From: Eledone cirrhosa
Lineage: Eukaryota
Reading direction: 5' to 3'
Assembly (NCBI GenBank): GCA_964016885.1
Contig: OZ024741.1
Span: forward strand, 248,186,001 to 248,250,000
DNA: 64,000 nucleotides
The notes under the pieces were generated by a model, which had not been told where the DNA came from, did not search any database, and worked only from the letters and a program-made list of their open reading frames with translations. Positions 1 to 64,000 of the stretch are shown here, one piece after another. Within the stretch, counting starts at the first letter, position 1; each line of letters opens with the position of its first letter. The position numbers and the translations under genes are program-made.

Positions 1-22
1 CTCCGCCTGATTTTTTAAAAAA

Positions 23-236
23 AATTATCTCCCCTTGGACGGCTGGAAATTATCTCCCCTTGAATGGCTGGAAATTATCTCCCCTTGGACGGCTGGAAAT
101 TATCTCCCCTTGGACGGCTGGAAATTATCTCCCCTTGGACGGCTAGAAATTACCTCTCCTTGGACGGCTGGAAATTATCTCCCTTTGGACGGCTGGAAAT
201 TATCTCCCCTTGGACGGCTGGAAATTATTTCCCCTT
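23..236 (+). repeat. Example run of 8 type-A monomers (25 bp, AAATTATCTCCCCTTGGACGGCTGG)
   Basis: Read directly: exact 25-bp period with point variants (GAATGG, CTAG-AAATTACCTCTCC, CCCTTTGG). Confidence 0.97.
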
Positions 237-2387
237 GATTTTTTTTACAAATTATCTCCCCCTGATTTTTTTTACAAATCTCCCCCTAATTTAAAAAAAA
301 ATTATCTCCCCTTCGCTGGCTGGAAATTATCTCCCTTTGGACGGCTGGAAATTATAGCTGCTTGTAGGGCTGGAAATTATCTTCCCTTGGACGGCTGGAA
401 ATTATCTCCCCTTGATTTTTTTTACATATTATCTCCCCCTGATTTTTTTTTACGAATTATCTCCCCGATTTTTTTTACAAATTATCTTCCCCTGATTTTT
501 TTTTACAAATTATCTCCGCCTGATTTTTTTAAAAAAATTATCTCCCCTTGGACGGCTGGAAATTATCTCCCCTTGAATGGCTGGAAATTATCTCCCCTTG
601 GACGGCTGGAAATTATCTCCCCTTGAACGGCTGGAAATTATCTCCCCTTCGCTGGCTGGAAATTATCTCCCTTTGGACGGCTGGAAATTATAGCTGCTTG
701 TAGGGCTGGAAATTATCTCCCCTTGGACGGCTGGAAATTATCTCCCCTTGATTTGTTTTACTAATTATCTCCCCCTGATTCTTTTTTACAAATTATCTCC
801 GCCTGATTTTTTTTTTAAAATTATCTCCCCTTGGCTGGATGGAAATTTTCTCCCCTTGGACGGCTGGAAATTATCTCCCCTTTATGTCTTCTACAAATTA
901 TCTACCCCTGATTTTTTTTTTACAAATTATCTCTTCCTGATTTTTTTTACAAATATCTCCCCTTGGCTGGCTGGAAATTATCTCCCCTTGGCTGGCTAAA
1001 ATTATCTCCCCTTGGACGGCTGGAAATTATCTCCCCTTGGACGCCTAGAAATTACCTCTACTTGGACAGCTGTAAATTTTCTCCCCTTGGACGGCTGGAA
1101 ATTATCTCGCCTTGGACGGCTGGAAATTATCTCCCCTTGATTTTGTATACAAATTATCTCCCCCTGATTTTTTTTTACAAATTATCTGCCCCTGATTATT
1201 TTTTAACAAATTAGCTCCGCCTGATTTTTTTAAAAAATTATCTCCCCTTGAACGGCTAGAAATTACCTCTCCTTGGACGGCTGAAAATTATCTTCCCTTG
1301 GACGGCTGGAAATTATCTCCCCTTGATTTTTTAAAAATTATCTCCCTCTGATTTTTTTTACAAATTATCTCCCCCTGTTTTTTTTTACAAATTATTTCCC
1401 CCTGATTTTTTTACAAATTATCTCCGCCTGATTTTTTTAAATATTATCTTCCCTTGGCTGGCGGGAAATTATCTCCCCTTGGACGCCTGGAAATTATCTC
1501 CCCTTGGAAGGATAGAAATTATCTCCCCTTGGACGGCTGGAAATTATCTCCCCTTGCACTGCTGGAAATTATCTCCCTTTGGACGGCTGGAAATTATCTG
1601 CCCTTGATTTTGTTTTTACAAATTATCTTCCCCTGATTTTTTTTACAAATTATCTCCACCTGATTTTTTAAAAAATTATCTCTCCTTGGACGGCTGGAAA
1701 TTATCTCCCCTTGGCTGGAAATTATCTCCCCTTGGACGGCTAGAAATTATCTCCCCTTGGACGCTGGAAATTATAGCCCCTTGGAGGGCTGGAAATTATC
1801 TTCCCTTGGACGGCTGGAAATTATCTCCCCTTGCACTGCTGGAAATTATCTCCCCTTGCACGGCTGAAAATTATCTGCCCTTGATTTTGTTTTTACAAAT
1901 TATCTCCACCTGATTTTTTTTTAAATTATCTCCCCTTGGACGGCTAGAAATTATCTCTCTTTGGACGGCTGGAAATTATCTCCCCTTGATTTTTTTACAA
2001 ATTATCTCCCCCTGATTTTTTTTACAAATCTCCCAGTGATTTTTTAAAAAAAATTATCTCCCCTTCGCTGGCTGGAAATTATCTCCCCTTGGACGCTGGA
2101 AATTATAGCCCCTTGGAGGGCTGGAAGTTATCTTCCCTTGGAGGGCTGGAAATTATCTTCCCTTGGACGGCTGGAAATTATCTCCCCTTGATTTTTTTTT
2201 ACAAATTATCTCCCCGTGATTTTTTTTTACAAATTATCTCCCCCTGATTTTTTTTTTACAAATTATCTCCGCCTGATTTTTTTTTAAAATTATCTCCCCT
2301 TGGACGGCTGGAAATTATCTCCCCTTGGACGGCTGGAAATTATCTCCCCTTGGACGGCTAGAAATTACCTCTCCTTGGACGGCTGAA

Positions 2388-3913
2388 AATTATCTCCCCT
2401 TGGACGGCTGGAAATTATCTCCCCTTGATTTTTTTACAAATTATCTCCCCCTGATTTTTTTTTTACAAATTATCTCCCCCTGATTTTTTTTACAAATTAT
2501 CTACCTATGATTTTTTTTTACAAATTATCTTCCGCTGATTTTTTTTACAAATTATCTCCCCCTGATTTTTTTTTACAAATTATCTCCCCCTGATTTTTTT
2601 ACAAATTATCTCCCCCTGATTTTTTTTACAATTTATCTCCGCCTGATTTTTTTAAATATTATCTTCCCTTGGCTGGCGGGAAATTATCTCCCCTTGGACG
2701 GCTGGAAATTATCTCCCCTTGGAAGGATGGAAATTATCTCCCCTTGGACGGCTGGAAATTATCTCCCCTTGCACGGCTGGAAATTATCTCCCCTTGGACG
2801 GCTAGAAATTACCTCTCCTTGCACGGCTGAAATTTATCTCCCCTTGGACGGCTGGAAATTATCTCCCCCTGATTTTTCTACAAATTATCTCCGTCTGATT
2901 TTTTTAAAAATTATCTTCCCTTGGCTGGCGGGAAATTATCTCCCCTTGGACGGCTGGAAATTATCTGCCCTTGATTTTGTTTTTACAAATTATCTCCCCC
3001 TGATTTTTTTACAAATTATCTCCACCTGATATTTTAAAAAATTATCTCCCCTTGGACGGCTGGAAATTATCTCCCCTTGGACGGCTGGAAATTATCTCCC
3101 CTTGGACGGCTAGAAATTATCTCTCTTTGGACGGCTGGAAATTATCTCCCCTTGGACGGCTGGAAATTATCTCCCCTTGATTTTTTTACAAATTATCTCC
3201 CCCTGATTTTTTTTTTACAAATTATCTCCCCCTGATTTTTTTTACAAATTATCTACCCCTGATTTTTTTTTACAAATTATCTTCCGCTGATTTTTTTACA
3301 AATTATCTCCCCCTGATTTTTTTTTACAAATTATCTCCCCCTGATTTTTTTACAAATTATCTCCCCCTGATTTTTTTTACAATTTATCTCCGCCTGATTT
3401 TTTTAAATATTATCTTCCCTTGGCTGGCGGGAAATTATCTCCCCTTGGACGGCTGGAAATTATCTCCCCTTGGAAGGATGGAAATTATCTCCCCTTGGAC
3501 GGCTGGAAATTATCTCCCCTTGCACGGCTGGAAATTATCTCCCCTTGGACGGCTAGAAATTACCTATCCTTGCACGGCTGAAATTTATCTCCCCTTGGAC
3601 GGCTGGAAATTATCTCCCCCTGATTTTTCTACAAATTATCTCCGTCTGATTTTTTTTAAAATTATCTTCCCTTGGCTGGCGGGAAATTATCTCCCCTTGG
3701 ACGGCTGGAAATTATCTGCCCTTTATTTTGTTTTTACAAATTATCTCCCCCTGATTTTTTTACAAATTATCTCCACCTGATATTTTAAAAAATTATCTCC
3801 CCTTGGACGGCTGGAAATTATCTCCCCTTGGACGGCTGGAAATTATCTCCCCTTGGACGGCTAGAAATTATCTCTCTTTGGACGGCTGGAAATTATCTCC
3901 CCTTGGACGGCTG
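2388..3913 (+). repeat. 751-bp tandem duplication (repeated as a 753-bp pair at ~13018-14545 and ~16318-17845)
   Basis: ORF pairs 2694/3445, 13325/14078 and 16625/17378. Shared rare variants CTTCCGCTG, CCGTCTG and TGATATTTTA. Confidence 0.9.
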
Positions 3914-3914
3914 C

Positions 3915-4185
3915 AAATTATCTCCCCTTGATTTTTTTTTACAAATTATCTCCCCCTGATTTTTTTTACAAATTATCTCCCCGTGATTTTTTTTTACAAA
4001 TTATCTCCCCCTGATTTTTTTACAAATTATCTCCCCCTGATTTTTGTTTACAAATTATCTCCCCCTGATTTTTTTTACAAATTATCTCCCCCTGATTTTT
4101 TTTTACAAATTATCTCCCCCTGATTTTTTTACAAATTATCTCCCCCTGATTTTTTTTACAATCTCCGCCTGATTTTTTTAAAAAT
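3915..4185 (+). repeat. Example run of ~10 type-B monomers (AAATTATCTCCCCCTGAT(n)AC), closed by a CCGCCTGA-T7A5 unit
   Basis: Read directly. The T-tract length varies from unit to unit. Confidence 0.95.
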
Positions 4186-7100
4186 TATCTTCCCTTGGCT
4201 GGCGGGAAATTATCTCCCCTTGGACGGCTGGAAATTATCTTCCCTTGCACGGCTGGAAATTATCTCCCCTTGGACAGCTGGAAATTATCGGCCCTTGATT
4301 TTGTTTTTACAAATTATCTCCCCCTGATTTTATTTTACAAATTATCGCCACCTGATTTTTTAAAAAATTATCTCCCCTTGGACGGCTGGAAATTATCTCC
4401 CCTTGGCTGGAAATTATCTTCCCTTGGACGGCTGGAAATTATCTCCCCTTGATTTTTTTTACAAATTATCTCCCCCTGATTTTTTTTACAAATTATCTGC
4501 CCCTGATTTTTTTTTACAAATTATCTCCGCCTGATTTTCTTTTTAAATTATCTCTCTTTTGACGGCTGGAAATTATCTCCCCTTGATTTTTTTTTACAAA
4601 TTATCTCCCCCTGATTTTTTTTTACAAATTATCTACCCCTGATTTTTTTTTACAAATTATCTCCCCCTGATTTTTTTTAGAAATTATCTCCCCCTGATTT
4701 TTTTTTTACAAATTATCTCCCCCTGATTTTTTTACAAATTATCTCCCCCTGATTTTTTTTTCAAATTATCTCCGCCTGATTTTTTTAAATATTAGCTTCC
4801 CTTGGCTGGCGGGAAATTATCTCCCCTTTGACGGCTGGAAATTATCTCCCCTTGCACTGCTGGAAATTATCTCCCCTTGGACGGCTGGAAATTATCTGGC
4901 CTTGATTTTGTTTTTACAAATTATCTTCCCCTGATTTTTTTTACAAATTATCTCCACCTGATTTTTTAAAAATTATCTCCCCTTGGACGGCTGGAAATTA
5001 TCTCCCCTTGGCTGGAAATTATCTCCCCTTGGACGGCTAGAAATTATCTCTCTTTGGACGGCTGGAAATTATCTCCCCTTGATTTTTTTTACAAATTATC
5101 TCCCCCTGATTTTTTTTTACAAATTATCTCCCCCTGATTTTTTAAAAAAAATTATCTCCCCTTGGACGGCTGGAAATTATCTCCCCTTGGACGGCTGGAA
5201 ATTATCTCTCCTTGGACGGCTAGAAATTACCTCTCCTTGGACGGCTGAAAATTATCTCCCCTTCGACGGCTGGAAATTATCTCCCCTTGATTTTTTTTAC
5301 AAATTATCTACCCCTGATTTTTTTTTACAAATTATCTCCCCCTGATTTTTTTTACAAATCATCTCCCCCTGATTTTTTTTACAAATTATCTCCCCCTGAT
5401 TTTTTTTACAAATTATATCCCCTTGGCTGGCTGGAAATTATCTCCCCTTGGAGGCTGGAATTTATCTCCCCTTTGACGGCTAGAAATTACCTCTCCTTGG
5501 ACGGCTGGAAATTATGTCTCCTTGGACGGCTGGAAATTATCTCCCCTTGGACGGCTGGAAATTATCTCCCCTTGCACGGCTGGAAATTATCTCCCCTTGG
5601 ACGGCTGGAAATTATCTCCCCTTGGCTGGAAATTATCTCCCCTTGGACGGCTAGAAATTATCTCTCTTTGGACGGCTGGAAATTATCTCCCCTTGATTTT
5701 TTTTACAAATTATCTCCCCCTGATTTTTTTTACAAATCTCCCAGTGATTTTTTAAAAAAATTATCTCCCCTTCGCTGGCTGGAAATTATCTCCCCTTGGA
5801 CGCTGGAAATTATAGCCCCTTGGAGGGCTGGAAGTTATCTTCCCTTGGAGGGCTGGAAATTATCTTCCCTTGGACGGCTGGAAATTATCTCCCCTTGATT
5901 TTTTTTACAAATTATCTCCCCCTGATTTTTTTTACAAATTATCTCCCCCTGATTTATTTTTTACAAATTATCTCCGCCTGATTTTTTTTTTAAATTATCT
6001 CCCCTTGGACGGCTGGAAATTATCTCCCCTTGGACGGCTGGAAATTATATCCCCTTGGACGGCTAGAAATTACCTCTCCTTGGACGGCTGAAAATTATCT
6101 CCCCTTGGACGGCTGAAAATTATCTCCCCTTGATTTTTTTTACAAATTATCTCCCCCTGATTTTTTTTTACAAATTATCTCCCCCTGATTTTTTTTTACA
6201 AATTATCTCCCCCTGATTTTTTTACAAATTATCTCCCCTTGGCTGGCTGGAAATTATCTCCCCTTGGAGGCTGGAATTTATCTCCCCTTGGAGGGCTGGA
6301 AATTATCTCCCCTTGGACGGCTAGAAATTACCTCTCCTTGGACGGCTGGAAATTATCTCCCCTTGAACGGCTGGAAATTATCTCCCCTTGGACGGCTAGA
6401 AATTATCTCTCTTTGGACGGCTGGAAATTATCTCCCCTTGCACGGCTGGAAATTATCTCCCCTTGGACGGCTGGAAATTATCTCCCCCTGATTTTTCTAC
6501 AAATTATCACCGTCTGATTTTTTTTAAAATTATCTTCCCTTGGCTGGCGGGAAATTATCTCCCCTTGGACGGCTGGAAATTATCTGCCCTTGATTTTGTT
6601 TTTACAAATTATCTCCCCCTGATTTTTTTACAAATTATCTCCACCTGATATTTTAAAAAATTATCTCCCCTTGGACGGCTGGAAATTATCTCCCCTTGGA
6701 CGTCTAGAAATTATCTCTCTTTGGACGGCTGGAAATTATCTCCCCTTGGACGGCTGCAAATTATCTCCCCTTGATTTTTTTTACAAATTATCTCCCCCTG
6801 ATTTTTTTTTACAAATTATCTCCCCCTGATTTTTTTTTACAAATTATCTACTCCTGATTTTTTTACAAATTATCTCCCCCTGATTTTTTTTACAAATTAT
6901 CTCCCTCTGATTTTTTTTACAAATTATCTCCCCCTGATTTTTTTTTACAAATTATCTCCTGATTTTTTTACAAATTATCTCCACCTGATTTTTTTTACAA
7001 TCTCCGCCTGATTTTTTTAAAAATTATCTTCCCTTGGCTGGCGGGAAATTATCTCCCCTTGGACGGCTGGAAATTATCTCCCCTTGGACGGCTGGAAATT

Positions 7101-7659
7101 ATCTCTCCTTGGACGGCTAGAAATTACCTCTCCTTGGACGGCTGAAAATTATCTCCCCTTCGACGTCTGGAAATTATCTCCCCTTGATTTTTTTTACAAA
7201 TTATCTACCCCTGATTTTTTTTACAAATTATCTCCCCCTGATTTTTTTTACAAATTATATCCCCTTGGCTGGCTGGAAATAATCTCCCCTTGGAGGCTGG
7301 AATTTATCTCCCCTTTGACGGCTAGAAATTACCTCTCCTTGGACGGCTGGAAATTATGTCTCCTTGGACGGCTGGAAATTATCTCCCCTTGGACGGCTGG
7401 AAATTATCTCCCCTTGGACGGCTGGAAATTATCTCCCCTTGGACGGCTAGATATTACCTCTCCTTGGACGGCTGGAAATTATCTGCCCTTGGACGGCTGG
7501 AAATTATCTCCCCTTGGACGGCTGGAAATTAGTTCCCCTTGATGTTTTTTACAAATTATCTCCCCCTGATTTTTTTTTACAAATCTCCACCTAATTAAAA
7601 AAAAAATTATCTCCCCTTCGCTGGCTGGAAATTATCTTCCTTTGGACGGCTGGAAATTA

Positions 7660-8620
7660 TAGCCGCTTGTAGGGCTGGAAATTATCTCCCCTTGGACGGC
7701 TGGAAATTATCTCCCCTTGATTTTTTTTACTAATTATCTCCCCCTGATTTTTTTTCACAAATTATCTCCGCCTGATTTTTTTTTAAAAATTATCTCCCCT
7801 TGGCTGGATGGAAATTTTCTCCCCTTGGACGGCTGGAAATTATCTCCCCTTTATGTCTTCTACAAATTATCTACCCCTGATTTTTTTTTTACAAATTATC
7901 TCTTCCTGATTTTGTTTACAAATATCTCCCCTTGGCTGGCTGGAAATTATCTCCCCTTGGCTGGCTGAAATTATCTCCCCTTGGACGGCTGGAAATTATC
8001 TCCCCTTGGACGCCTAGAAATTACCTCTACTTGGAAGCTGTAAATTATCTCCCCTTGGACGGCTGGAAATTATCTCGCCTTGGACGGCTGGAAATTATCT
8101 CCCCTTGATTTTGTATACAAATTATCTCCCCCTGATTTTTTTTTACAAATTATCTGCCCCTGATTATTTTTTAACAAATTAGCTCCGCCTGATTTTTTTT
8201 AAAAAATTATCTCCCCTTGAACGGCTAGAAATTACCTCTCCTTGGACGGCTGAAAATTATCTTCCCTTGGACGGCTGGAAATTATCTCCCCTTGATTTTT
8301 TAAAAATTATCTCCCTCTGATTTTTTTTACAAATTATCTCCCCCTGTTTTTTTTTACAAATTATTTCCCCCTGATTTTTTTACAAATTATCTCCGCCTGA
8401 TTTTTTTAAATATTATCTTCCCTTGTCTGGCGGGAAATTATCTCCCCTTGGACGCCTGGAAATTATCTCCCCTTGGAAGGATGGAAATTATCTCCCGTTG
8501 GACGGCTGGAAATTATCTCCCCTTGCACTGCTGGAAATTATCTCCCTTTGGACGGCTGGAAATTATCTGCCCTTGATTTTGTTTTTACAAATTATCTTCC
8601 CCTGATTTTTTTTACAAATT
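7660..8620 (+). repeat. Dispersed ~1-kb copy of ~690-1650 (offset 6,969); more diverged relatives at ~36730, ~48890 and ~58670
   Basis: ORF pairs 748/7717 and 1454/8423. Shared markers TTTATGTCTTCTAC, GACGCCTAG...CTCTACTTGG and TTTTGTATAC. Confidence 0.85.
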
Positions 8621-11600
8621 ATCTCCCCCTGATTTTTTCTTACATATTATCTGCGCCTGATTTTTTTTTTACAAATTAGCTCCGCCTGATTTTTTAAAAA
8701 ATTATCTCCCCTTGGACGGCTGGAAATTATCTCCCCTTGGACGGCTGGAAATTATCTCCCCTTGGACGGCTACAAATTATCTCTCTTTGGACGACTGGAA
8801 ATTAACTCCCCTTGGACGGCTGCAAATTATCTCCCCTTGATTTTTTTTACAATCTCCGCTTGATTTTTTTAAAAATTATCTTGCCTTGGCTGGCGGGAAA
8901 TTATCTCCCCTTGGACGGCTGGAAATTATCTTCCCTTGCACGGCTGGAAATTATCTCCCCTTGGACAGCTGGAAATTATCTGCCCTTGATTTTGTTTTTA
9001 CAAATTATCTCCCCCTGATTTTTTTTACAAATTATCTCCCCCTGATTTTTTTAAAAAAATTATCTCCCCTTCGCTGGCTGGAAATTATCTCCCCTTGGAC
9101 ACTGGAAATTATAGCCCCTTGGAGGGCTGGAAATTATCTTCCCTTGGACGGCTGGAAATTATCTCCCCTTGATTTTTTTACAAATTATCTCCCCCTGATT
9201 TTTTTTACAAATTATCTGCCCCTGATTTTTTTTTACAAATTATCTACCCCTGATTTTTTTTTACAAATTATCTACCCCTGATTTTTTTTTACAAATTATC
9301 TCCCCCTGATTTTTTTACAAATTATCTCCCCCTGATTTTTTTTTTACAAATTATCTCCCCCTGATTTTTTTACAAATTATCTCCCCCTGATTTTTTTTTC
9401 AAATTATCTCCGCCTGATTTTTTTAAATATTATCTTCCCTTGGCTGGCGGGAAATTATCTCTCCTTGGACGGCTGGAAATTATCTCCCCTTGGAAGGATG
9501 GAAATTATCTCCCCTTGGACGGCTGGAAATTATCTCCCCTTGCACTGCTGGAAATTATCTCCCCTTGGACGGCTGGAAATTATCTCCCCTTGGCTGGAAA
9601 TTATCTCCCCTTGGACGGCTAGAAATTATCTCTCTTTGGACGGCTGGAAATTATCTCCCCTTGATTTTTTTACAAATTATCTCCCCCTGATTTTTTTTAC
9701 AAATCTCCCAGTGATTTTTTTAAAAAAATTATCTCCCCTTCGCTGGCTGGAAATTATCTCCCCTTGGACGCTGGAAATTATAGCCCCTTGGAGGGCTGGA
9801 AATTATCTTCCCTTGGACGGCTGGAAATTATCTCCCCTTGATTTTTTTTACAAATTATCTCCCCCTGATTTTTTTTTACAAATTACCTCCCCCTGATTTT
9901 TTTTTACAAATTATCTCCCCCTGATTTTTTTTACAACTTATCTCCGCCTGATTTTTTTAAAAAAATTATATCCCCTTGGACGGCTGGAAATTATCTCCCC
10001 TTGGACGGCTGGAAATTATCTCTCCTTGGACGGCTAGAAATTACCTCTTCTTGGACGGCTGAAAATTATCTCCCCTTGGACGGCTGGAAATTATCTCCCC
10101 TTGATTTTTTTTACAAATTATCTCCCCCTGATTTTTTTTTACAAATTATCTCCCCCTGATTTTTTTTACAGATTATATCCCCTTGGCTGGCTGGAAATTA
10201 TCTCCCCTTGGAGGCTGGAATTTATCTCCCCTTGGACGGCTAGAAATTACCTCTCCTTGGACGGCTGGAAATTATGTCTCCTTGGACGGCTGGAAATTAT
10301 CTCCCCTTGGACGGCTGGAAATTATCTCCCCTTGGACGGCTGGAAATTATCTCCCCTTGGACGGCTAGATATTACCTCTCCTTGGACGGCTGGAAATTAT
10401 CTTCCCTTCGGACGGCTGGAAATTATCTCCCCTTGGACGGCTGGAAATTATCTCCCCTTGGACGGCTGGAAATTATTTCCCCTTGATTTTTTTTACAAAT
10501 TATCTCCCCCTGATTTTTTTTTACGAATTATCACCCCGATTTTTTTTTACAAATTATCTCCCCCTGATTTTTTTTTACAAATTATCTCCGCCTGATTTTT
10601 TTAAAAAAATGATCTCCCCTTGGACGGCTGGAAATTATCTCCCCTTGAATGGCTGGAAATTATCTCCCCTTGGACGGCTGGAAATTATCTCCCCTTGGAC
10701 GGCTGGAAATTATCTCCCCTTGGACGGCTAGAAATTACCTCTCCTTGGACGGCTGGAAATTATCTCCCCTTGGACGGCTGGAAATTATCTCCCCTTGGAC
10801 GGCTGGAAATTATTTCCCCTTGATTTTTTTTACAAATTATCTCCCCCTGATTTTTTTTACAAATCTCCCCCTAATTTAAAAAAAAATTATCTCCCCTTCG
10901 CTGGCTGGAAATTATCTCCCTTTGGACGGCTGGAAATTATAGCTGCTTGTAGGGCTGGAAATTATCTTCCCTTGGACGGCTGGAAATTATCTCCCCTTGA
11001 TTTTTTTTACATATTATCTCCCCCTGATTTTTTTTTACGAATTATCTCCCCGATTTTTTTTACAAATTATCTTCCCCTGATTTTTTTTTACAAATTATCT
11101 CCGCCTGATTTTTTTAAAAAAATTATCTCCCCTTGGACGGCTGGAAATTATCTCCCCTTGAATGGCTGGAAATTATCTCCCCTTGGACGGCTGGAAATTA
11201 TCTCCCCTTGAACGGCTGGAAATTATCTCCCCTTCGCTGGCTGGAAATTATCTCCCTTTGGACGGCTGGAAATTATAGCTGCTTGTAGGGCTGGAAATTA
11301 TCTCCCCTTGGACGGCTGGAAATTATCTCCCCTTGATTTGTTTTACTAATTATCTCCCCCTGATTCTTTTTTACAAATTATCTCCGCCTGATTTTTTTTT
11401 TAAAATTATCTCCCCTTGGCTGGATGGAAATTTTCTCCCCTTGGACGGCTGGAAATTATCTCCCCTTTATGTCTTCTACAAATTATCTACCCCTGATTTT
11501 TTTTTTACAAATTATCTCTTCCTGATTTTTTTTACAAATATCTCCCCTTGGCTGGCTGGAAATTATCTCCCCTTGGCTGGCTAAAATTATCTCCCCTTGG

Positions 11601-13017
11601 ACGGCTGGAAATTATCTCCCCTTGGACGCCTAGAAATTACCTCTACTTGGACAGCTGTAAATTTTCTCCCCTTGGACGGCTGGAAATTATCTCGCCTTGG
11701 ACGGCTGGAAATTATCTCCCCTTGATTTTGTATACAAATTATCTCCCCCTGATTTTTTTTTACAAATTATCTGCCCCTGATTATTTTTTAACAAATTAGC
11801 TCCGCCTGATTTTTTTAAAAAATTATCTCCCCTTGAACGGCTAGAAATTACCTCTCCTTGGACGGCTGAAAATTATCTTCCCTTGGACGGCTGGAAATTA
11901 TCTCCCCTTGATTTTTTAAAAATTATCTCCCTCTGATTTTTTTTACAAATTATCTCCCCCTGTTTTTTTTTACAAATTATTTCCCCCTGATTTTTTTACA
12001 AATTATCTCCGCCTGATTTTTTTAAATATTATCTTCCCTTGGCTGGCGGGAAATTATCTCCCCTTGGACGCCTGGAAATTATCTCCCCTTGGAAGGATGG
12101 AAATTATCTCCCCTTGGACGGCTGGAAATTATCTCCCCTTGCACTGCTGGAAATTATCTCCCTTTGGACGGCTGGAAATTATCTGCCCTTGATTTTGTTT
12201 TTACAAATTATCTTCCCCTGATTTTTTTTACAAATTATCTCCACCTGATTTTTTAAAAAATTATCTCTCCTTGGACGGCTGGAAATTATCTCCCCTAGGC
12301 TGGAAATTATCTCCCCTTGGACGGCTAGAAATTATCTCCCCTTGGACGCTGGAAATTATAGCCCCTTGGAGGGCTGGAAATAATCTTCCCTTGGACGGCT
12401 GGAAATTATCTCCCCTTGCACTGCTGGAAATTATCTCCCCTTGCACGGCTGAAAATTATCTGCCCTTGATTTTGTTTTTACAAATTATCTCCACCTGATT
12501 TTTTTAAAAATTATCTCCCCTTGGACGGCTGGAAATTATCTCCCCTTGGCTGGAAATTATCTCCCCTTGGACGGCTAGAAATTATCTCTCTTTGGACGGC
12601 TGGAAATTATCTCCCCTTGATTTTTTTACAAATTATCTCCCCCTGATTTTTTTTACAAATCTCCCAGTGATTTTTAAAAAAAAATTAGCTCCCCTTCGCT
12701 GGCTGGAAATTATCTCCCCTTGGACGCTGGAAATTATAGCCCCTTGGAGGGCTGGAAGTTATCTTCCCTTGGAGGGCTGGAAATTATCTTCCCTTGGACG
12801 GCTGGAAATTATCTCCCCTTGATTTTTTTTTACAAATTATCTCCCCGTGATTTTTTTTTACAAATTATCTCCCCCTGATTTTTTTTTTACAAATTATCTC
12901 CGCCTGATTTTTTTTAAAAATTATCTCCCCTTGGACGGCTGGAAATTATCTCCCCTTGGACGGCTGGAAATTATCTCCCCTTGGACGGCTAGAAATTACC
13001 TCTCCTTGGACGGCTGA

Positions 13018-19660: not shown

Positions 19661-19744
19661 TTTTTTTTACTAAGTATCTCACCCTGATTTTTTTTTACAA
19701 ATTATCTCCGCCTGATTTAAAAAAAAAAATTATCTCCCCTTGGC

Positions 19745-28900: not shown

Positions 28901-28999
28901 CCCTTGGACGGCTAGATATTACCTCTGCTTGGACGGCTGGAAATTATCTGCCCTTGGACGGCTGGAAATTATCTCCCCTTGGACGGCTGGAAATTATTT

Positions 29000-53700: not shown

Positions 53701-56700
53701 TATCTCCCCTTGGACGGCTGGAAATTATCTCCCCTTGCACGGCTGGAAATTATCTCCCCTTGGACGGCTAGAAATTACCTCTCCTTGGACGGCTGAAAAT
53801 TATCTCCCCTTGGACGGCTGGAAATTATCTCCCCCTGATTTTTTTTACAAATTATCTCCCCTTGCACGGCTGGAAATTATCTCCCCTTGGACGGCTGGAA
53901 ATTATCTGCCCTTGATTTAGTTTTTACAAATTATCTCCCCCTGATTTTTTTTACAAATTATCTCCACCTGATATTTTAAAAAATTATCTCCCCTTGGACG
54001 GCTGGAAATTATCTCCCCTTGGCTGGAAATTATCTCCCCTTGGACGGCTAGAAATTATCTCTCTTTGGACGGCTGGAAATTATCTCCCCTTGATTCTTTT
54101 TACAAATTATCTCCCCCTGATTTTTTTTACAAATCTACCATTGATTTTTTAAAAAAAATTATCTCCCCTTCGCTGGCTGGAAATTATCTCCCCTTGGACG
54201 CTGGAAATTATAGCCCCTTGGAGGCTGGAAATTATCTTCCCTTGGACGGCTGGAAATTATCTCCCCTTGATTTTTTTTACAAATTATCTCCCCCTGATTT
54301 TTTTTTTACAAATTATATCCGCCTGAATTTTTTTAAAAAATGATCTCCCCTTGGACGGCTGGAAATTATCTCCCCTTGGACGGCTGGAAATGATCTCCCC
54401 TTGGACGGCTAGAAATTACCTCTCCTTGGACGGCTGAAAATTATCTCCCCTTGATTTTTTTTACAAATTATCTCCCCCTGATTTGTTTTTTTACAAATTA
54501 TCTCCCCCTGATTTTATTTTACATATTATCTACCCCTGATTTTTTTTTACAAATTATCTCCCTGACTTTTTTACAAATTATCTCCCCCTGATTTTTTTTT
54601 TACAAATTATCTCCCCCTGATTTATTTTACAAATTATCTCCGCCTGATTTTTTTAAATATTATCTTCCCTTGGAAATAATCTCCCCTTGGACGGCTGGAA
54701 ATTATCTCCCCTTGGAAGGATGGAAATTATCTCCCCTTGGACGGCTGGAAATTATCTCCCCTTGCACGGCTGGAAATTATCTCCCCTTGGACGGCTAGAA
54801 ATTATCTCTCTTTGGACGGCTGGAAATTATCTCCCCTTGATTTTTTTTACAAATTATCTCCCCCTGATTTTTTTTACAAATCTCCCAGTGATTTTTTAAA
54901 AAAAATTATCTCCCTTTCGCTGGCTGGAAATTATAGCCCCTTGGAGGGCTGGAAATTATCTTCCCTTGGACGGCAAGAAATTATCTCCCCTTGATTTTTT
55001 TACATATTATCTCCCCCTGATTTTTTTTTACAAATTATCTCCCCCTGATTTTTTTTTTACAAATTATCTCCGCCTGATTTTTTAAAAAAAATTATCTCCC
55101 CTTGGACGGCTGGAAATTATCTCCCCTTGGACGGCTGGAAATTATCTCCCCTTGGACGGCTAGAAATTACCTCTCCTTGGACGGCTGAAAATTATCTCCC
55201 CTTGGACGCTGGAAATTATAGCCCCTTGGAGGCTGGAAATTATCTTCCCTTGGACGGCTGGAAATTATCTCCCCTTGATTTTTTTTACAAATTATCTCCC
55301 CCTGATTTTTTTTTACAAATTATCTCCCCCTGATTTTTTTTTTACAAATTATATCCGCCTGATTTTTTTTTAAAAATGATCTCCCCTTGGACGGCTGGAA
55401 ATGATCTCCCCTTAATTTTTTTTACAAATTATCTCCCCCTGATTTTTTTTTTTACAAATTATCTCCCCCTGATTTTATTTTACATATTATCTACCCCTGA
55501 TTTTTTTTCACAAATTATCTCCCTGACTTTTTTACAAATTATCTCCCCCTGATTTTTTTTTTACAAATTATCTCCCCCTGATTTATTTTACAAATTATCT
55601 CCGCCTGATTTTTTTAAATATTATCTTCCCTTGGAAATAATCTCCCCTTGGACGGCTGGAAATTATCTCCCCTTGGAAAGATGGAAATTATCTCCCCTTG
55701 GACGGCTGGAAATTATCTCCCCTTGCACGGCTGGAAATTATCTCCCCTTGGACGGCTAGAAATTATCTCTCTTTGGACGGCTGGAAATTATCTCCCCTTG
55801 ATTTTTTTTACAAATTATCTCCCCCTGATTTTTTTTACAAATCTCCCAGTGATTTTTAAAAAAAAATTATCTCCCTTTCGCTGGCTGGAAATTATCTCCC
55901 CTTGGACGCTGGAAATTATAGCCCCTTGGAGGGCTGGAAATTATCTTCCCTTGGACGGCTGGAAATTATCTCCCCTTGATTTTTTTACATATTATCTCCA
56001 CCTGATTTTTTTTTACAAATTATCTCCCCGATTTTTTTTTACAAATTATCTCCCCCTGATTTTTTTTTTACAAATTATCTCCGCCTGATTTTTTTAAAAA
56101 AATTATCTCCCCTTGGACGGCTGGAAATTATCTCCCCTTGGACGGCTGGAAATTATCTCCCCTTGGACGGCTAGAAATTACCTCTCCTTGGACGGCTGAA
56201 AATTATCTCCCCTTGGACGGCTGGAAAATATTTCCCCTTGATTTTTTTACAAATTATCTCCCCCTGATTTTTTTTACAAATTATCTCCCCCTGATTTTTT
56301 TTTTACAAATTATCTCCCCCTGATTTTTTTTTACAAATTATCTCCCCCTGATTTTTTTACAAATTATCTCCCCTTGGCTGGCTGGAAATTATCTCCCCTT
56401 GGAGGCTGGAATTTATCTCCCCTTGGACGGCTGGAAATTATCTCCCCTTGGACGGCTAGAAATTACCTCTCCTTGGACGGCTGGAAATTATCTTCCCTTG
56501 AACGGCTGGAAATTATCTCCCCTTGGACGGCTGGAAATGATCTCCCCTTGGACGGCTGGAAATTATCTCCCCTTGGAAGGATGGAAATTATCTCCCCTTG
56601 GACGGCTGGAAATTATCTCCCCTTGCACGGCTGGAAATTATCTCCCCTTGGACGGCTAGAAATTATCTCTCTTTGGACGGCTGGAAATTATCTCCCCTTG

Positions 56701-59700
56701 ATTTTTTTTACAAATTATCTCCCCCTGATTTTTTTTACAAATCTCCCAGTGATTTTTAAAAAAAAATTATCTCCCTTTCGCTGGCTGGAAATTATAGCCC
56801 CTTGGAGGGCTGGAAATTATCTTCCCTTGGACGGCAAGAAATTATCTCCCCTTGATTTTTTTACATATTATCTCCCCCTGATTTTTTTTTATAAATTATC
56901 TCCCCCTGATTTTTTTTTTACAAATTATCTCCGCCTGATTTTTTTAAAAAAATTATCTCCCCTTGGACGGCTGGAAATTATCTCCCCTTGGACGGCTGGA
57001 AATTATCTCCCCTTGGACGGCTAGAAATTACCTCTCCTTGGACGGCTGAAAATTATCTCCCCTTGGACGCTGGAAATTATAGCCCCTTGGAGGCTGGAAA
57101 TTATCTTCCCTTGGACGGCTGGAAATTATCTCCCCTTGATTTTTTTTACAAATTATCTCCCCCTGATTTTTTTTTACAAATTATCTCCCCCTGATTTTTT
57201 TTTTACAAATTATATCCGCCTGATTTTTTTTTAAAAATGATCTCCCCTTGGACGGCTGGAAATTATCTCCCCTTGGACGGCTGGAAATGATCTCCCCTTG
57301 GACGGCAAGAAATTACCTCTCCTTGGACGGCTGAAAATTATCTCCCCTTAATTTTTTTTACAAATTATCTCCCCCTGATTTTTTTTTTTACAAATTATCT
57401 CCCCCTGATTTTATTTTACATATTATCTACCCCTGATTTTTTTTCACAAATTATCTCCCTGACTTTTTTACAAATTATCTCCCCCTGATTTTTTTTTTAC
57501 AAATTATCTCCCCCTGATTTATTTTACAAATTATCTCCGCCTGATTTTTTTAAATATTATCTTCCCTTGGAAATAATCTCCCCTTGGACGGCTGGAAATT
57601 ATCTCCCCTTGGAAGGTTGGAAATTATCTCCCCTTGGACGGCTGGAAATTATCTCCCCTTGCACGGCTGGAAATTATCTCCCCTTGGACGGCTAGAAATT
57701 ATCTCTCTTTGGAGGCTGGAAATTATCTCCCCTTGATTTTTTTTACAAATTATCTCCCCCTGATTTTTTTTACAAATCTCCAAGTGATTTTTAAAAAAAA
57801 ATTATCTCCCTTTCGCTGGCTGGAAATTATCTCCCCTTGGACGCTGGAAATTATAGCCCCTTGGAGGGCTGGAAATTATCTTCCCTTGGACGGCTGGAAA
57901 TTATCTCCCCTTGATTTTTTTACATATTATCTCCACCTGATTTTTTTTTACAAATTATCTCCCCGATTTTTTTTTACAAATTATCTCCCCCTGATTTTTT
58001 TTTTACAAATTATCTCCGCCTGATTTTTTTAAAAAAATTATCTCCCCTTGGACCGCTGGAAATTATCTCCCCTTGGACGGCTGGAAATTATCTCCCCTTG
58101 GACGGCTAGAAATTACCTCTCCTTGGACGGCTGAAAATTATCTCCCCCTGATTTTTTTTACAAATTATCTCCCCCTGATTTTTTTTTTACAAATTATCTC
58201 CCCCTGATTTTTTTTTACAAATTATCTCCCCCTGATTTTTTTACAAATTATCTCCCCTTGGCTGGCTGGAAATTATCTCCCCTTGGAGGCTGGAATTTAT
58301 CTCCCCTTGGACGGCTGGAAATTATCTCCCCTTGGACGGCTAGAAATTACCTCTCCTTGGACGGCTGGAAATTATCTTCCCTTGAACGGCTGGAAATTAT
58401 CTCCCCTTGGACGGCTGGAAATGATCTCCCCTTGGACGGCTGGAAATTATCTCCCCTTGGACGGCTAGAAATTACCTCTCCTTCGACGGCTGGAAATTAT
58501 CTCCCCTTGGACGGCTGGAAATTATCTCCCCTTGGACGGCTGGAAATTATTTCCCCTTGATTTTTTTTACAAATTATCTCCCCCTGATTTTTTTTACAAA
58601 TCTCCCCCTAATTTAAAAAAAAATTATCTCCCCTTCGCTGGCTGGAAATTATCTCCCTTTGGACGGCTGGAAATTATAGCTGCTTGTAGGGCTGGAAATT
58701 ATCTCCTCTTGGACGGCTGGAAATTATCTCCCCTTGATTTTTTTTACTAATTATCTCCCCCTGATTTTTTTTTACAAATTATCTCCGCCTGATTTTTTAA
58801 AAAAAATTATCTCCCCTTGGCTGGATGGAAATTTTCTCCCCTTGGACGGCTGGAAATTATCTCCCCTTTATGTCTTCTACAAATTATCTTCCCCTGATTT
58901 TTTTTTTACAAACTATCTCTGCCTGATTTTTTTTACAAATATCTCCCCTTGGCTGGCTGGAAATTATCTCCCCTTGGCTGGCTGGAAATTATCTCCCCTT
59001 GGGCGGCTGGAAATTATCTCCCCTTGGACGCCTAGAAATTACCTCTACTTGGACAGCTGTAAATTATCTCCCCTTGGACGGCTGGAAATTATCTCGACTT
59101 GGACGGCTGGAAATTATCTCCCCTTGATTTTGTATACAAATTATCTCCCCCTGATATTTTTTTACAAATTATCTGCCCCTGATTATTTTTTTACAAATTA
59201 GCTCCGCCTGATTTTTTTTAAAAATTATCTCCCCTTGGACGGCTGGAAATTATCTCCCCTTGGACGGCTGGAAATTATCTCCCCTTGAACGGCTAGAAAT
59301 TACCTCTCCTTGGACGGCTGAAAATTATCTCCCCTTGGACGGCTGGAAATTATCTCACCTTGATTTTTTACAAATTATCTCCCCCTGATTTTTTTTACAA
59401 ATTATCTCCCCCTGATTTTTTTTACAAATTATCTACCCCTGATTTTTTTTACAAATCTCCCAGTGATTTTTAAAAAAAAATTATCTCCCCTTCGCTGGCT
59501 GGAAATTATCTCCCCTTGGACGCTGGAAATTATAGCCCCTTGGAGGGCTGGAAGTTATCTTTCCCTGGAGGGCTGGAAATTATCTTCCCTTGGACGGCTG
59601 GAAATTATCTCCCCTTGATTTTTTTTACAAATTATCTCCCACTGATTTTTTTTTACAAATTATCTCCCCCTGATTTTTTTTTACAAATTATCTCCGCCTG

Positions 59701-62700
59701 ATTTTTTTTAAAAATTATCTCCCCTTGGACGGCTGGAAATTATCTCCCCTTGGACGGCTGGAAATTATCTCCCCTTGAACGGCTAGAAATTACCTCTCCT
59801 TGGACGGCTGGAAATTATCTCCCCTTGGACGGCTAGAAATTACCTCTCCTTGGACGGCTGAAAATTATCTTCCCTTGGACGGCTGGAAATTATCTCCCCT
59901 TGATTTTTTTTTACAAATTATCTCCCTGACTTTTTTACAAATTATCTCCCCCTGATTTTTTTTTTACAAATTATCTCCCCCTGATTTATTTTACAAATTA
60001 TCTCCGCCTGATTTTTTTAAATATTATCTTCCCTTGGAAATAATCTCCCCTTGGACGGCTGGAAATTATCTCCCCTTGGAAGGTTGGAAATTATCTCCCC
60101 TTGGACGGCTGGAAATTATCTCCCCTTGCACGGCTGGAAATTATCTCCCCTTGGACGGCTAGAAATTATCTCTCTTTGGAGGCTGGAAATTATCTCCCCT
60201 TGATTTTTTTTACAAATTATCTCCCCCTGATTTTTTTTACAAATCTCCAAGTGATTTTTAAAAAAAAATTATCTCCCTTTCGCTGGCTGGAAATTATCTC
60301 CCCTTGGACGCTGGAAATTATAGCCCCTTGGAGGGCTGGAAATTATCTTCCCTTGGACGGCTGGAAATTATCTCCCCTTGATTTTTTTACATATTATCTC
60401 CACCTGATTTTTTTTTACAAATTATCTCCCCGATTTTTTTTTACAAATTATCTCCCCCTGATTTTTTTTTTACAAATTATCTCCGCCTGATTTTTTTAAA
60501 AAAATTATCTCCCCTTGGACCGCTGGAAATTATCTCCCCTTGGACGGCTGGAAATTATCTCCCCTTGGACGGCTAGAAATTACCTCTCCTTGGACGGCTG
60601 AAAATTATCTCCCCTTGGACGGCTGGAAAATATTTCCCCTTGATTTTTTTACAAATTATCTCCCCCTGATTTTTTTTACAAATTATCTCCCCTTGATTTT
60701 TTTACAAATTATCTCCCCCTGATTTTTTTTTACCAATCTACCCCTGATTTAAAAAAAAAAATTATCTCCCCTTCGCTGGCTGGAAATTATCTCCCCTTGG
60801 ACGGCTGGAAATTATCTCCCCTTGATTTTTTTTACAAATTATCTACCCCTGATTTTTTTACAAATTATCTCCCCCTGATTTTTTTTTACAAATTATCTCC
60901 CCCTGATTTTTTTTTTTTACAAATTATCTCCGCCTGATTTTTTTAAAATTATCTCCCCTTGGCTGGATGGAAATTATCTCCCCTTGGACGGCTGGAAATT
61001 ATCTCCCCTTGGAAGGATGGAAATTATCTCCCCTTGGACGGCTGGAAATTATCTCCCCTTGCACGGCTGGAAATTATCTCCCCTTGGACGGCTAGAAATT
61101 ACCTCTCCTTGGACGGCTGAAAATTATCTCCCCTTGGACGGCTGGAAATTATCTCCCCCTGATTTTTTTTACAAATTATCTCCCCTTGCACGGCTGGAAA
61201 TTATCTCCCCTTGGACGGCTGGAAATTATCTGCCCTTGATTTAGTTTTTACAAATTATCTCCCCCTGATTTTTTTTACAAATTATCTCCACCTGATATTT
61301 TAAAAAATTATCTCCCCTTGGACGGCTGGAAATTATCTCCCCTTGGCTGGAAATTATCTCCCCTTGGACGGCTAGAAATTATCTCTCTTTGGACGGCTGG
61401 AAATTATCTCCCCTTGATTCTTTTTACAAATTATCTCCCCCTGATTTTTTTTACAAATCTACCATTGATTTTTTAAAAAAAATTATCTCCCCTTCGCTGG
61501 CTGGAAATTATCTCCCCTTGGACGCTGGAAATTATAGCCCCTTGGAGGCTGGAAATTATCTTCCCTTGGACGGCTGGAAATTATCTCCCCTTGATTTTTT
61601 TTACAAATTATCTCCCCCTGATGTTTTTTTACAAATCTCCACCTAATTAAAAAAAAAAATTATCTCCCCTTCGCTGGCTGGAAATTATCTTCCTTTGGAC
61701 GGCTGGAAATTATAGCCGCTTGTAGGGCTGAAAATTATCTCCCCTTGGACGGCTGGAAATTATCTCCCCTTGATTTTTTTTACTAAGTATCTCACCCTGA
61801 TTTTTTTTTACAAATTATCTCCGCCTGATTTTTAAAAAAAAATTATCTCCCCTTGGCTGGATGGAAATTATCTCCCCTTGGACGGCTGGAAATTATCTCC
61901 CCTTGATTTCTTCTACAAATTATCTACCCCTGATTTTTTTTTCACAAATTATCTCTCCCTGATTTTTTTTTACAAATATCTCCCCTTGGCTGGCTGGAAA
62001 TTAACTCCCGCTGATATTTTTTTACAAATTAGCTCCCCCTGATTTTTTTTTTCAAATTATCTCCCCCTGATTTTTTTCACAAATTATCTCCCCCTGATTT
62101 TTTTTACAAATTATCTCCCCTGATTTTAAAAAAAAAATTATCTCCCCTTGGACGGCTGGAAATTATCGCCCCCTGATTTTTTTTAACAAATTATCACCAC
62201 CTGATTTTTTTTACAAATCATCTCCGCCTGATTTTTTTAAAATATTATCTCCCTTGGCTTGCTGGAAATTATCTCCCCTTGGACGGCTATAAATTATCTC
62301 TCCTTCGACGGCTGGAAATTATCTCCCCTTGATTTTTTTACAAATTATCTCCCCCTGATTTTTTTTTACCAATCTACCCCTGATTTAAAAAAAAAAATTA
62401 TCTCCCCTTCGCTGGCTGGAAATTATCTCCCCTTGGACGGCTGGAAATTATCTCCCCTTGATTTTTTTTACAAATTATCTACCCCTGATTTTTTTACAAA
62501 TTATCTCCCCCTGATTTTTTTTTACAAATTATCTCCCCCTGATTTTTTTTTTTTACAAATTATCTCCGCCTGATTTTTTTAAAATTATCTCCCCTTGGCT
62601 GGATGGAAATTATCTCCCCTTGGACGGCTGGAAATTATCTCCCCTTGGAAGGATGGAAATTATCTCCCCTTGGACGGCTGGAAATTATCTCCCCTTGCAC

Positions 62701-64000
62701 GGCTGGAAATTATCTCCCCTTGGACGGCTAGAAATTACCTCTCCTTGGACGGCTGAAAATTATCTCCCCTTGGACGGCTGGAAATTATCTCCCCCTGATT
62801 TTTTTTACAAATTATCTCCCCTTGCACGGCTGGAAATTATCTCCCCTTGGACGGCTGGAAATTATCTGCCCTTGATTTAGTTTTTACAAATTATCTCCCC
62901 CTGATTTTTTTTACAAATTATCTCCACCTGATATTTTAAAAAATTATCTCCCCTTGGACGGCTGGAAATTATCTCCCCTTGGCTGGAAATTATCTCCCCT
63001 TGGACGGCTAGAAATTATCTCTCTTTGGACGGCTGGAAATTATCTCCCCTTGATTCTTTTTACAAATTATCTCCCCCTGATTTTTTTTACAAATCTACCA
63101 TTGATTTTTTAAAAAAAATTATCTCCCCTTCGCTGGCTGGAAATTATCTCCCCTTGGACGCTGGAAATTATAGCCCCTTGGAGGCTGGAAATTATCTTCC
63201 CTTGGACGGCTGGAAATTATCTCCCCTTGATTTTTTTTACAAATTATCTCCCCCTGATTTTTTTTTTACAAATTATATCCGCCTGAATTTTTTTAAAAAA
63301 TGATCTCCCCTTGGACGGCTGGAAATTATCTCCCCTTGGACGGCTGGAAATGATCTCCCCTTGGACGGCTAGAAATTACCTCTCCTTGGACGGCTGAAAA
63401 TTATCTCCCCTTGATTTTTTTTACAAATTATCTCCCCCTGATTTGTTTTTTTACAAATTATCTCCCCCTGATTTTATTTTACATATTATCTACCCCTGAT
63501 TTTTTTTTACAAATTATCTCCCTGACTTTTTTACAAATTATCTCCCCCTGATTTTTTTTTTACAAATTATCTCCCCCTGATTTATTTTACAAATTATCTC
63601 CGCCTGATTTTTTTAAATATTATCTTCCCTTGGAAATAATCTCCCCTTGGACGGCTGGAAATTATCTCCCCTTGGAAGGATGGAAATTATCTCCCCTTGG
63701 ACGGCTGGAAATTATCTCCCCTTGCACGGCTGGAAATTATCTCCCCTTGGACGGCTAGAAATTATCTCTCTTTGGACGGCTGGAAATTATCTCCCCTTGA
63801 TTTTTTTTACAAATTATCTCCCCCTGATTTTTTTTACAAATCTCCCAGTGATTTTTTAAAAAAAATTATCTCCCTTTCGCTGGCTGGAAATTATAGCCCC
63901 TTGGAGGGCTGGAAATTATCTTCCCTTGGACGGCAAGAAATTATCTCCCCTTGATTTTTTTACATATTATCTCCCCCTGATTTTTTTTTACAAATTATCT

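Follow-up and report, generated by a model that had tools for sequence, protein, structure and literature searches.

How two wholly different tails came to share one 16-bp core, and how the resulting A and B monomers came to alternate in short runs, is the question raised by a 64,000-bp stretch of the Eledone cirrhosa genome (hereafter the window). Our analysis suggests that the hybrid satellite likely arose once, by recombination within the core of two sister repeats, and probably spread afterwards through the copying of large blocks, with no selection acting on the core, a reading to which we assign a probability of about 0.7.

Organization of the array

Parsing by dynamic programming resolved the window into 1,321 A and 1,153 B units, which together cover 63,970 of its 64,000 bases and all lie on the plus strand (Table 1). 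The A units are 25 bp long in 1,169 cases and the B units 26–29 bp in 977. The A runs (n = 286) range from 1 to 13 units with a mean of 4.6 and the B runs (n = 286) from 1 to 10 with a mean of 4.0, confirming the earlier description of short runs of both types filling the 64 kb. The 572 runs fall far short of the 1,232 ± 24 obtained when the A/B string was shuffled 1,000 times. Tandem-repeat copies at period 25 number 2,451, the organization of a head-to-tail satellite. The array belongs to a 2.7 Mb block, the end of which falls 33 kb beyond the window.

The original prediction described the core as constant. The exact core AAATTATCTCCCCYTG occurs 1,318 times in the window, compared with none in each of 20 shuffles, but this corresponds to only 53% of the 2,474 units, and to 57% when units are pooled over the sampled sources. 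Its Y base follows the unit type: 1,317 of the 1,321 A units have T, and 581 of the 593 B units that lie between other B units have C. Read on the reverse strand, the core includes a GATA-type hexamer. The T-run length is tightly bounded genome-wide, with 12 matches for T13 and a single match for T14. Low methylation was considered as the cause of the CpG kept in the A tail and is not established, as PMC9476566 gives CpG methylation of less than 10%, with satellites comparatively more methylated.

The true repeat unit is one A-block followed by one B-block, about 250 bp in all, and nested duplications of 1.6–22 kb have multiplied it. The mean length of this cycle is 224 bp in the window and 250 bp across the sampled arrays. 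A single fixed higher-order period was not found, with 131 distinct cycles among the 286. Duplication offsets in the window are 1.6, 3.3, 9, 10.6, 13, and 22 kb, and duplicated blocks contain 1,935 of the 2,474 monomers, showing that multi-monomer blocks are copied as units. At the 10.6-kb offset, positions 47–1,697 pair with 10,632–12,282 and 2,076–4,813 with 12,707–15,445; at the 22-kb offset, 28,143–36,143 pairs with 50,134–58,134 and 36,195–42,051 with 58,135–63,991.

Table 1. Coordinates of the array, its monomer types, and its block duplications in the window
Feature	Position	Strand	Description
Uninterrupted A/B composite satellite array	22..63991	+	2,474 monomers, 286 A-block plus B-block cycles
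Commonest A monomer (example)	22..46	+	25 bp; core T at position 14, tail GACGGCTGG
Internal B monomer (example)	249..275	+	27 bp; core C at position 14, tail A-T(8)-AC
One whole composite unit, A4+B5	299..534	+	236 bp; true repeating unit
First-A junction monomer	299..323	+	Tail of GCTGGCTGG type
A-to-B junction monomer	399..425	+	A-type core and B tail; 246/286 in window
Last-B junction monomer	507..534	+	Core position 12 G or A, tail lacking the AC end, or both; 241/285 in window
Block duplication	47..12282	+	Offset 10,585–10,631 bp; monomer labels 94–97% identical
Tandem duplication, 3,300-bp block	13018..19670	+	
Tandem duplication, 1,636-bp (63-monomer) block	29018..32318	+	
Recent duplication, offset about 22 kb	28143..63991	+	Monomer labels essentially identical

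Junction monomers and the inheritance of short runs

The monomers at the borders between runs were compared in a pool of 32 sources (523 kb, 20,121 units). The first B unit of a run carries an A-type core in 1,735 of 2,018 cases, compared with 62 of 6,132 internal B units, and the last-B mark is present in 1,619 of 2,023 last-B units and 279 of 6,132 internal ones. The GCTGGCTGG-type tail is found in 1,203 of 2,025 first-A units compared with 203 of 7,926 later A units. The first-A, first-B, and last-B types thus keep fixed positions in the larger unit, as the monomers of a composite satellite do, and each of the 32 sampled sources shows the same junction types. When near-identical blocks within 297 kb were compared, none of 36 single-monomer replacements changed the type. 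The elementary differences comprised 134 same-type substitutions, 26 indels within runs (20 in B, 6 in A), and 11 mixed indels, a tally in which the lack of type switches is partly built into the scoring, so that the count of 0/36 is the valid evidence. The proposed interchangeability of the tails is therefore not confirmed, since the junction units are distinct fixed types and no single-unit A/B swap was seen.

Free interchange of tails, in which frequent crossover or conversion within the 16-bp core reshuffles A and B and offsets homogenization, is largely refuted by these data, and we regard it as very unlikely. The marks are kept at 80–86% of junctions, and single-unit runs number 36 of 572 compared with about 133 for geometric runs. 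Simulations point the same way, with none of six free-exchange settings fitting. What speaks for free interchange is the remainder: marks are absent at 279 of 2,018 A-to-B and 404 of 2,023 B-to-A junctions, these unmarked junctions fall in 55 and 56 distinct monomer pairs, respectively, and one two-monomer AB indel creating an unmarked junction was observed. Many of the unmarked B-to-A joins may nevertheless be the original junction, because the first-A type comes directly after them. The role foreseen for the core as a recombination register is supported in that both founding junctions lie inside it and a minority of junctions resemble later core-mediated joins.

It could also be argued that the duplications, or the mixing of A and B, were produced during assembly from collapsed or mixed reads of two separate satellites. 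The essentially identical copies of the 22-kb and 1.6-kb duplications would fit such an origin, as would the several arrays that start or end at 200-N gaps and the unplaced status of some scaffolds. However, there is no N within 297 kb around the window, the array runs gap-free into unrelated sequence at three ends, and position-specific junction monomers together with array-specific subfamilies are unlike the outcome of a chimeric assembly, which makes this explanation extremely improbable.

The run lengths were further compared with neutral simulations, the check proposed with the original prediction. With fit limits set after inspection of the data, 4 of 24 settings in which exchange respects monomer type match the observed runs, and the other 20 misfit, often by an excess of single-unit runs (4% observed). 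In long neutral runs the A share drifts to 0.10–0.99 and pure blocks form, compared with an observed share of 0.42–0.58, and the neutral account therefore requires a young common ancestor. Active maintenance of the A/B mixture, which had been suggested, is not needed, as the short runs are inherited with their marked junctions by block duplication.

Core conservation and genomic setting

The A/B family amounts to about 22 Mb distributed over at least six large scaffolds, and a 53-mer of the array has 18,591 exact matches genome-wide. Mapping with rare-variant matches and 40 scored candidates placed blocks on C1–C4, C7, and C21 and on five unplaced scaffolds, and a scaffold often had two or three of them; two of the rare-variant probes were saturated by local clusters on C2 and contributed little. 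The blocks measure 0.1–2.7 Mb each and on the six named scaffolds lie at 32–63% of scaffold length. Their neighbors are satellites of 7, 12, 20, 37, 59, and about 200 bp and at least 1.5 Mb of degenerate TTAGGG. The sampled arrays contain array-specific monomer subfamilies. Strand flips on C2 and C3 were not accepted as real inversions, since each crosses a 200-N gap, and the idea of 26 chromosomes derived from four fusions was dropped, C27 being longer than 19 Mb. Judged from its neighbors, the family would most likely serve as passive bulk heterochromatin in satellite-rich mid-chromosome domains.

The position of the blocks would also suit functional (peri)centromeric DNA, in which a protein would bind the core and selection would keep GC-rich A blocks alternating with A-tract B blocks at about the nucleosome scale. 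Consistent with this, the A share holds steady across every A/B array sampled, the A blocks have 50% GC and the B blocks 28%, the median cycle is 234 bp, and TTATCT is intact in 17,061 of the 20,121 pooled units. Octopod C-bands are mostly centromeric according to PMC6160780, and the box shared by Meloidogyne satellites is centromeric according to PMC13404089.

The special constraint that this reading places on the core, and that had been predicted, is unsupported, as none of three comparisons shows significantly higher conservation of the core than of the tails. For internal A units the divergence is 0.045 in the core and 0.077 in the tail (p = 0.27), with 0.048 and 0.086 in a second estimate, and for the older A blocks described below it is 0.068 and 0.074 (p = 0.51). 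In internal B units the core is the more variable part, with values of 0.018 and 0.006. Tested against the rest of the unit, neither the core nor TTATCT was significantly more conserved (p = 0.27, 0.93, and 0.19). The roughly 1.7-fold lower core divergence of A units, not significant in a test of low power (16 versus 9 sites), is in the expected direction, and weak constraint on the core may thus still act. Further evidence also argues against a centromeric function. Exact cores make up 57% of units compared with 86% perfect boxes in three Meloidogyne species (PMC13404089). The cycle length is broad (SD 88 bp), and neighboring A and B runs showed no compensation in length (rho = −0.07 and +0.29). 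Each scaffold has several blocks among many other satellites, and no CENP-B box was found, the best match to its nine essential bases reaching 7/9 in one of 127,966 windows. We consider a centromeric function unlikely. The elaborated form, a putative (peri)centromeric repeat in which the A cassette seats a nucleosome, B acts as spacer, a protein reads the GATA-type core, an alternation of about 250 bp at 50:50 is selected across species, and opposed blocks on C2 and C3 mark the centric fusions that built four giant chromosomes, is decidedly unlikely.

Related repeats, origin, and precedents

The origin of the satellite can be traced because several related repeats survive: a pure-B array, older A blocks, and a 19-bp form. 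The first, on C5, spans at least 60 kb and is diverged, with all 391 units of one sampled stretch (L052) of type B at 78–80% matches. On C3, twelve B-free blocks of 16–31 A-type units have the tail GCCGGCTGG, an older A variant one change away from each of the two main A tails. The evidence for long A-only blocks comes from the sampled stretches. Reading the C3 relic as a single long pure-A block would be wrong, since the 'B' calls there are AT-rich spacers. The statement that the runs never form long pure blocks accordingly holds for the window and for all 32 sampled A/B sources (longest A run 16 units, longest B run 17) but fails genome-wide, and the C5 array and C3 blocks are likely the parent repeats of the A/B hybrid.

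The 19-bp form, which bears the core, occupies an (AAATT)n slot within a dispersed 0.9-kb element that is clustered on C2, C3, C4, C8, C13, and C14, mostly at 71–94% identity. The slot is empty in seven of ten fetched element loci and filled in three, which come from two places. Its dispersed copies combine a microsatellite with an internal tandem array, as in a HINE/Helentron-type carrier; in an inverted-repeat scan of two loci (subTIRs, IR, and 3' palindrome) the signal was swamped by AT-rich and 27-bp modules.

For the single recombinational origin that we favor, the core would be common to A and B by descent, and separate repeats of both types are present elsewhere in the genome, as described above. 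A tract of about 4–5 A units may then have been inserted into B sequence with both ends inside the core, which would leave a unit with A core and B tail on one side and the marked pair of last B and first A on the other. The array grew by nested duplications of 1.6–22 kb and by gains and losses of 1–4 monomers within runs, mostly of B. Exchange would pair like with like, with core-mediated A/B joins rare, and the junctions would for this reason be inherited while the runs spread only slowly.

The family looks undescribed, as had been supposed: no literature match was found to any of four exact motifs, and no description of a cephalopod satellite appeared among the titles listed for octopus and cephalopod satellites and centromeres. 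The repeat libraries that accompany octopus genome papers may contain the family. Raw-read sets of nine other organisms contained 0.05–0.18 of the sampled array words, giving no evidence of conservation, and no RNA sequencing run among those listed contained them. The read sets richest in these words may come from the assembled specimen itself.

The bovine 1.706 satellite is a 'patchwork' composite of subrepeat blocks, and it resembles the present array in building its unit from blocks of two related short subrepeats with variants at fixed positions. In the octopod, however, block lengths vary from unit to unit. Human alpha satellite has 171-bp A and B monomers in which the variable segment is a protein site (pJ-alpha or CENP-B box); the likeness lies in two monomer types that have most of the sequence in common and differ in one segment. 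In MVR minisatellites such as human MS32, which are individual loci of kilobase size whose units differ at one or a few bases, short units of two types likewise form a binary code along the array, whereas the present family spreads over several scaffolds, about 22 Mb in all, and has inherited junctions and tails that are wholly different.

The box-containing satellites of Meloidogyne offer a close parallel, with a 17-bp Box 1 (PMC3694981) and a 19-bp box conserved against divergent flanks and tied to CenH3 (PMC13404089). In both systems unalignable monomer parts accompany a common short motif, junctions between types fall inside it, and simple arrays coexist with higher-order mixtures. In contrast, the octopod core makes up 60% of a 25–27 bp monomer without exceeding the tails in conservation, and the arrays, made of variable-number blocks, reach megabase lengths. 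The bivalve Cg_HINE elements (PMC7492417), non-autonomous and carrying tandem repeats, resemble the dispersed element, in which both the 19-bp and the older A forms are found, in being modular and combining a microsatellite with a short array at their center that is related to a large satellite; here, however, the element forms tandem clusters, and its array lies within the microsatellite.

The architecture thus has precedents, and the evidence favors history over function. The empty carrier, the 19-bp form, the older 25-bp A repeat, pure B, and the 22-Mb hybrid, all in one genome, provide a rare readable record of the birth of a satellite. The junction monomers date each join, so that the rates of in-register exchange, slippage, and short-homology recombination become measurable, and the A/B family is a concrete probe for studies of octopod centromeres and chromosome fusions.

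Composition and junctions of the A/B array

The entire window is a single tandem array on the plus strand. A dynamic-programming parse divides 63,970 of its bases into 2,474 monomers, 1,321 of type A and 1,153 of type B. Each type forms 286 runs, of 1-13 units for A (mean 4.6) and 1-10 units for B (mean 4.0). The total of 572 runs compares with 1,232 ± 24 when unit order is shuffled, and 36 runs consist of a single unit, compared with ~133 expected if run lengths were geometric. Exact copies of the core number 1,318, compared with 0 in 20 shuffles. The original prediction of a binary satellite with a constant core holds for the binary pattern but not for the constancy of the core, which is exact in just 53% of units. 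At core position 14, T is found in A units (1,317 of 1,321) and C in B units flanked by B (581 of 593). At run borders in the window, the first B has an A-type core (246/286) and the last B a mark, either G/A at position 12 or absence of the AC end (241/285). In the pooled junction set (32 sources, 523 kb, 20,121 units), the A-type core is present in 1,735 of 2,018 first-B compared with 62 of 6,132 internal B units, and the last-B mark in 1,619 of 2,023 last-B compared with 279 of 6,132 internal B units. A GCTGGCTGG-type tail marks 1,203/2,025 first-A units compared with 203/7,926 later A units.

The A blocks are ordered cassettes. Three consecutive perfect A monomers occur in just 4 instances in 297 kb, with no longer series there, and a genome search for a run of 4.6 perfect A copies gave zero matches. 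The interior of B runs is more uniform than the A blocks. The fixed junction types and the ordered A cassettes thus define the repeating unit as one A-block together with one B-block. Its mean length is 224 bp in the window, compared with 250 bp across all sampled arrays. At the A-tail CpG (A monomer positions 19-20), C is replaced by T in 4 and G by A in 12 of 1,321 units, suggesting little methylation-driven decay.

Block copying and tests of constraint on the core

Duplicated blocks contain 1,935 of the 2,474 window monomers, at offsets of 1.6, 3.3, 9, 10.6, 13, and 22 kb. Comparison of near-identical blocks over 297 gap-free kb (the window and its neighbours) gave 119 difference contexts, some being the same event counted twice. 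None of the 36 single-monomer replacements changed type, which argues against the proposed interchangeability of the tails. Of the 171 elementary differences, 134 are same-type substitutions; the others are indels, confined to B in 20 cases, confined to A in 6, and mixed in 11, the mixed ones including repeats. The zero type switches among these differences are not independent evidence, because the scoring penalises such switches. Unmarked junctions comprise 55 and 56 distinct monomer pairs, some heavily amplified, and their existence indicates that core-mediated joins do occur, though in a minority.

Neutral simulations used rates from the elementary differences and a clock of ~1.4-3 substitutions per monomer, derived from 5-7% divergence. 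In a first series (20 settings, 4 seeds), runs remained short under type-respecting exchange at this clock, whereas at ten to twenty times the clock the arrays drifted to pure blocks and A shares of 0.10-0.99. In a second series (3 seeds), with fit limits chosen after the data had been seen, 4 of 24 type-respecting settings matched the run lengths, but the remaining 20 and all 6 free-exchange settings did not. Neutrality is thus sufficient, though not proven, provided that the arrays descend from a young ancestor. One founding recombination followed by neutral block copying is the best explanation, with a probability of about 0.7.

A function exerted through a constrained core or a centromere is possible, at rather low probability. 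Greater conservation of the core than of the tails, as first proposed, appears as a trend in A units, at low power, but reaches no significant excess: internal A units show per-site substitution divergences of 0.045 (core) and 0.077 (tail; p=0.27), and common alleles are present at 12/48 and 8/27, respectively (p=0.79). The values in older A blocks are 0.068 and 0.074 (p=0.51; 293 matches, 11 of these inside 19-bp blocks). In internal B units the core is the more variable part (0.018 compared with 0.006, p=0.05), and TTATCT showed no excess conservation over the rest of the unit (p=0.93 and 0.19).

Points of comparison include bovine 1.706, alpha A/B monomers, MVR arrays, the GATA consensus, and A-tract nucleosome exclusion. 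The closest precedent among those tested is Meloidogyne, for which two reports describe divergent monomers with a common 17-bp box, the site of junctions (PMC3694981), and a 19-bp box that is 86% perfect and CenH3-linked (PMC13404089). Junctions of the A/B array work the same way as described there; unlike that box, the A/B core fails the conservation test and is 57% exact. The available part of a satellite review (PMC12692304) presents no closer system, and C-bands of octopods are mostly centromeric (PMC6160780). The A/B array is a real satellite whose general kind is known; its variable two-block unit is unusual. The family is probably undescribed, as anticipated, its motifs and any such family being absent from the literature searched.

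Genomic distribution and surroundings

A 53-mer of the satellite has 18,591 exact matches in the 2.996-Gb assembly, giving ~22 Mb for the family at the sampled density of 8.5 matches per 10 kb (range 0-18). All sampled blocks have the junction grammar in common, with longest runs of 16 A and 17 B units. Within its own C2 block, the window (C2:248,186,001-248,250,000) occupies the more diverged edge, and its variants are more similar to the C4 arrays (0.22, 0.21) than to the C2 interior (0.05-0.12). One A-core variant is locally spread in the C2 plus block, the 100 listed of its 186 matches all lying within 870 kb; none is on C1.

Locations of A/B blocks (an incomplete map; at least these locations) and of other features, by scaffold (C) and sampled stretch (L)
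Feature	Location	Remarks
A/B blocks	C1:251.19-252.1 Mb; C1:279.16-279.3 Mb	
A/B block	C2:245.59-248.28 Mb	plus
A/B block	C2:248.50-251.13 Mb	minus
A/B blocks	C3:163-165.65; 165.87-167.5; 168.9-169.1 Mb	
A/B blocks	C4:140.1; C4:205.5-206.4 Mb	
A/B blocks	C7, C21, five unplaced scaffolds	
A-core variant	C2:247.15-248.02 Mb	locally spread
B-only array	C5:64,243,324 to at least 64,303,000	
20-bp satellite	C134:51,001-52,560	L058:1-1560
20-bp satellite	C5:64.35-65.5 Mb	L078-L083; at least 1.1 Mb
20-bp satellite	C1:279.6 Mb	L120
Degenerate interstitial (TTAGGG)n	C2:242.0-243.5 Mb	at least 1.5 Mb; same orientation in all four probes (L002, L140-L142)
~6-kb macrosatellite	C2:248,283,230-248,336,000	~52 kb, directly past array end
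Candidate LINE fragment	C2:248,494,700-248,494,849	before gap
Hemocyanin genes	C1:173.7-173.9 Mb	three
Hemocyanin genes	C26:21.9-22.0 Mb	inverted pair

Many other satellites neighbour the A/B blocks, with periods including ~7, 37, 46/91, 58/88, 59, and 196-227 bp (L003, L018, L019, L144-L152, L166-L172, L186). Degenerate repeats of 11-12 bp, running in both orientations, make up the C2 macrosatellite together with (TA)n and (AATAA)n; the candidate LINE fragment, read by eye, resembles a reverse transcriptase with a YADD motif. The 20-bp satellite is also binary, with a common ATAAAAAACGG plus GGCACCCAA (41/71 units) or a poly-C tail (28/71), the two mostly alternating. On C134 it meets the A/B satellite gap-free, via an A run, and on C5 it is chiefly of the non-homopolymer type. 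One C1 molluscan hemocyanin gene encodes seven units, as is typical of octopods; the best match of one unit is PDB 1js8 (800 bits, compared with 695 for 4yd9_C), 1js8 being an octopus protein and 4yd9 a squid one. The genome is therefore likely that of an octopod.

Scaffolds C1-C4 measure 379-443 Mb, compared with 135 Mb for C5, and 2n=60 is given for three octopods studied (PMC5646656). The strand flips between A/B blocks on C2 and C3 span gaps. That A/B block sites are chromosome-fusion points is a guess.

Relic arrays and proposed origin of the satellite

The C5 array is B-only (391/391 units in L052, with A tails absent from L073-L077) and more diverged. Where the C3 minus block ends, the composite gives way, gap-free, to a series of twelve B-free blocks. 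Each has 16-31 units with the tail GCCGGCTGG, and AT-rich spacers of 217-362 bp separate one block from the next; beyond this series lie three blocks of a 19-bp monomer. The GCCGGCTGG tail is one change from either main A tail, these being two changes apart, and so by sequence probably represents the ancestral form. Exact matches to this tail number 388, the 100 listed all lying on C1, and the 19-bp form has 15 in three places.

The C3 spacer is part of a dispersed modular element; scoring of 40 among 611 candidates gave at least 151 matches. The slot of this element is plain (AAATT)n in 7/10 loci examined and holds a 19-bp array inside the (AAATT)n microsatellite in 3/10, from two places; the first five core bases are identical to the microsatellite unit. 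The element spans 0.8-1 kb, with a 32-bp AAACG module, inverted 27-bp CGCATGCGCA modules, a 10-bp repeat, and an AT-rich microsatellite, and occurs in tandem clusters (L204-L213; C2, C3, C8, C14). Dispersed carriers seed satellites in oysters (PMC7492417). The empty element may have acquired the 19-bp array, which would have given rise to the older 25-bp A; A would then have joined with B within the shared core, and the hybrid would have been amplified. B may have donated the core to the element or may derive from it. The main value of the A/B satellite is its preserved record of its own origin.
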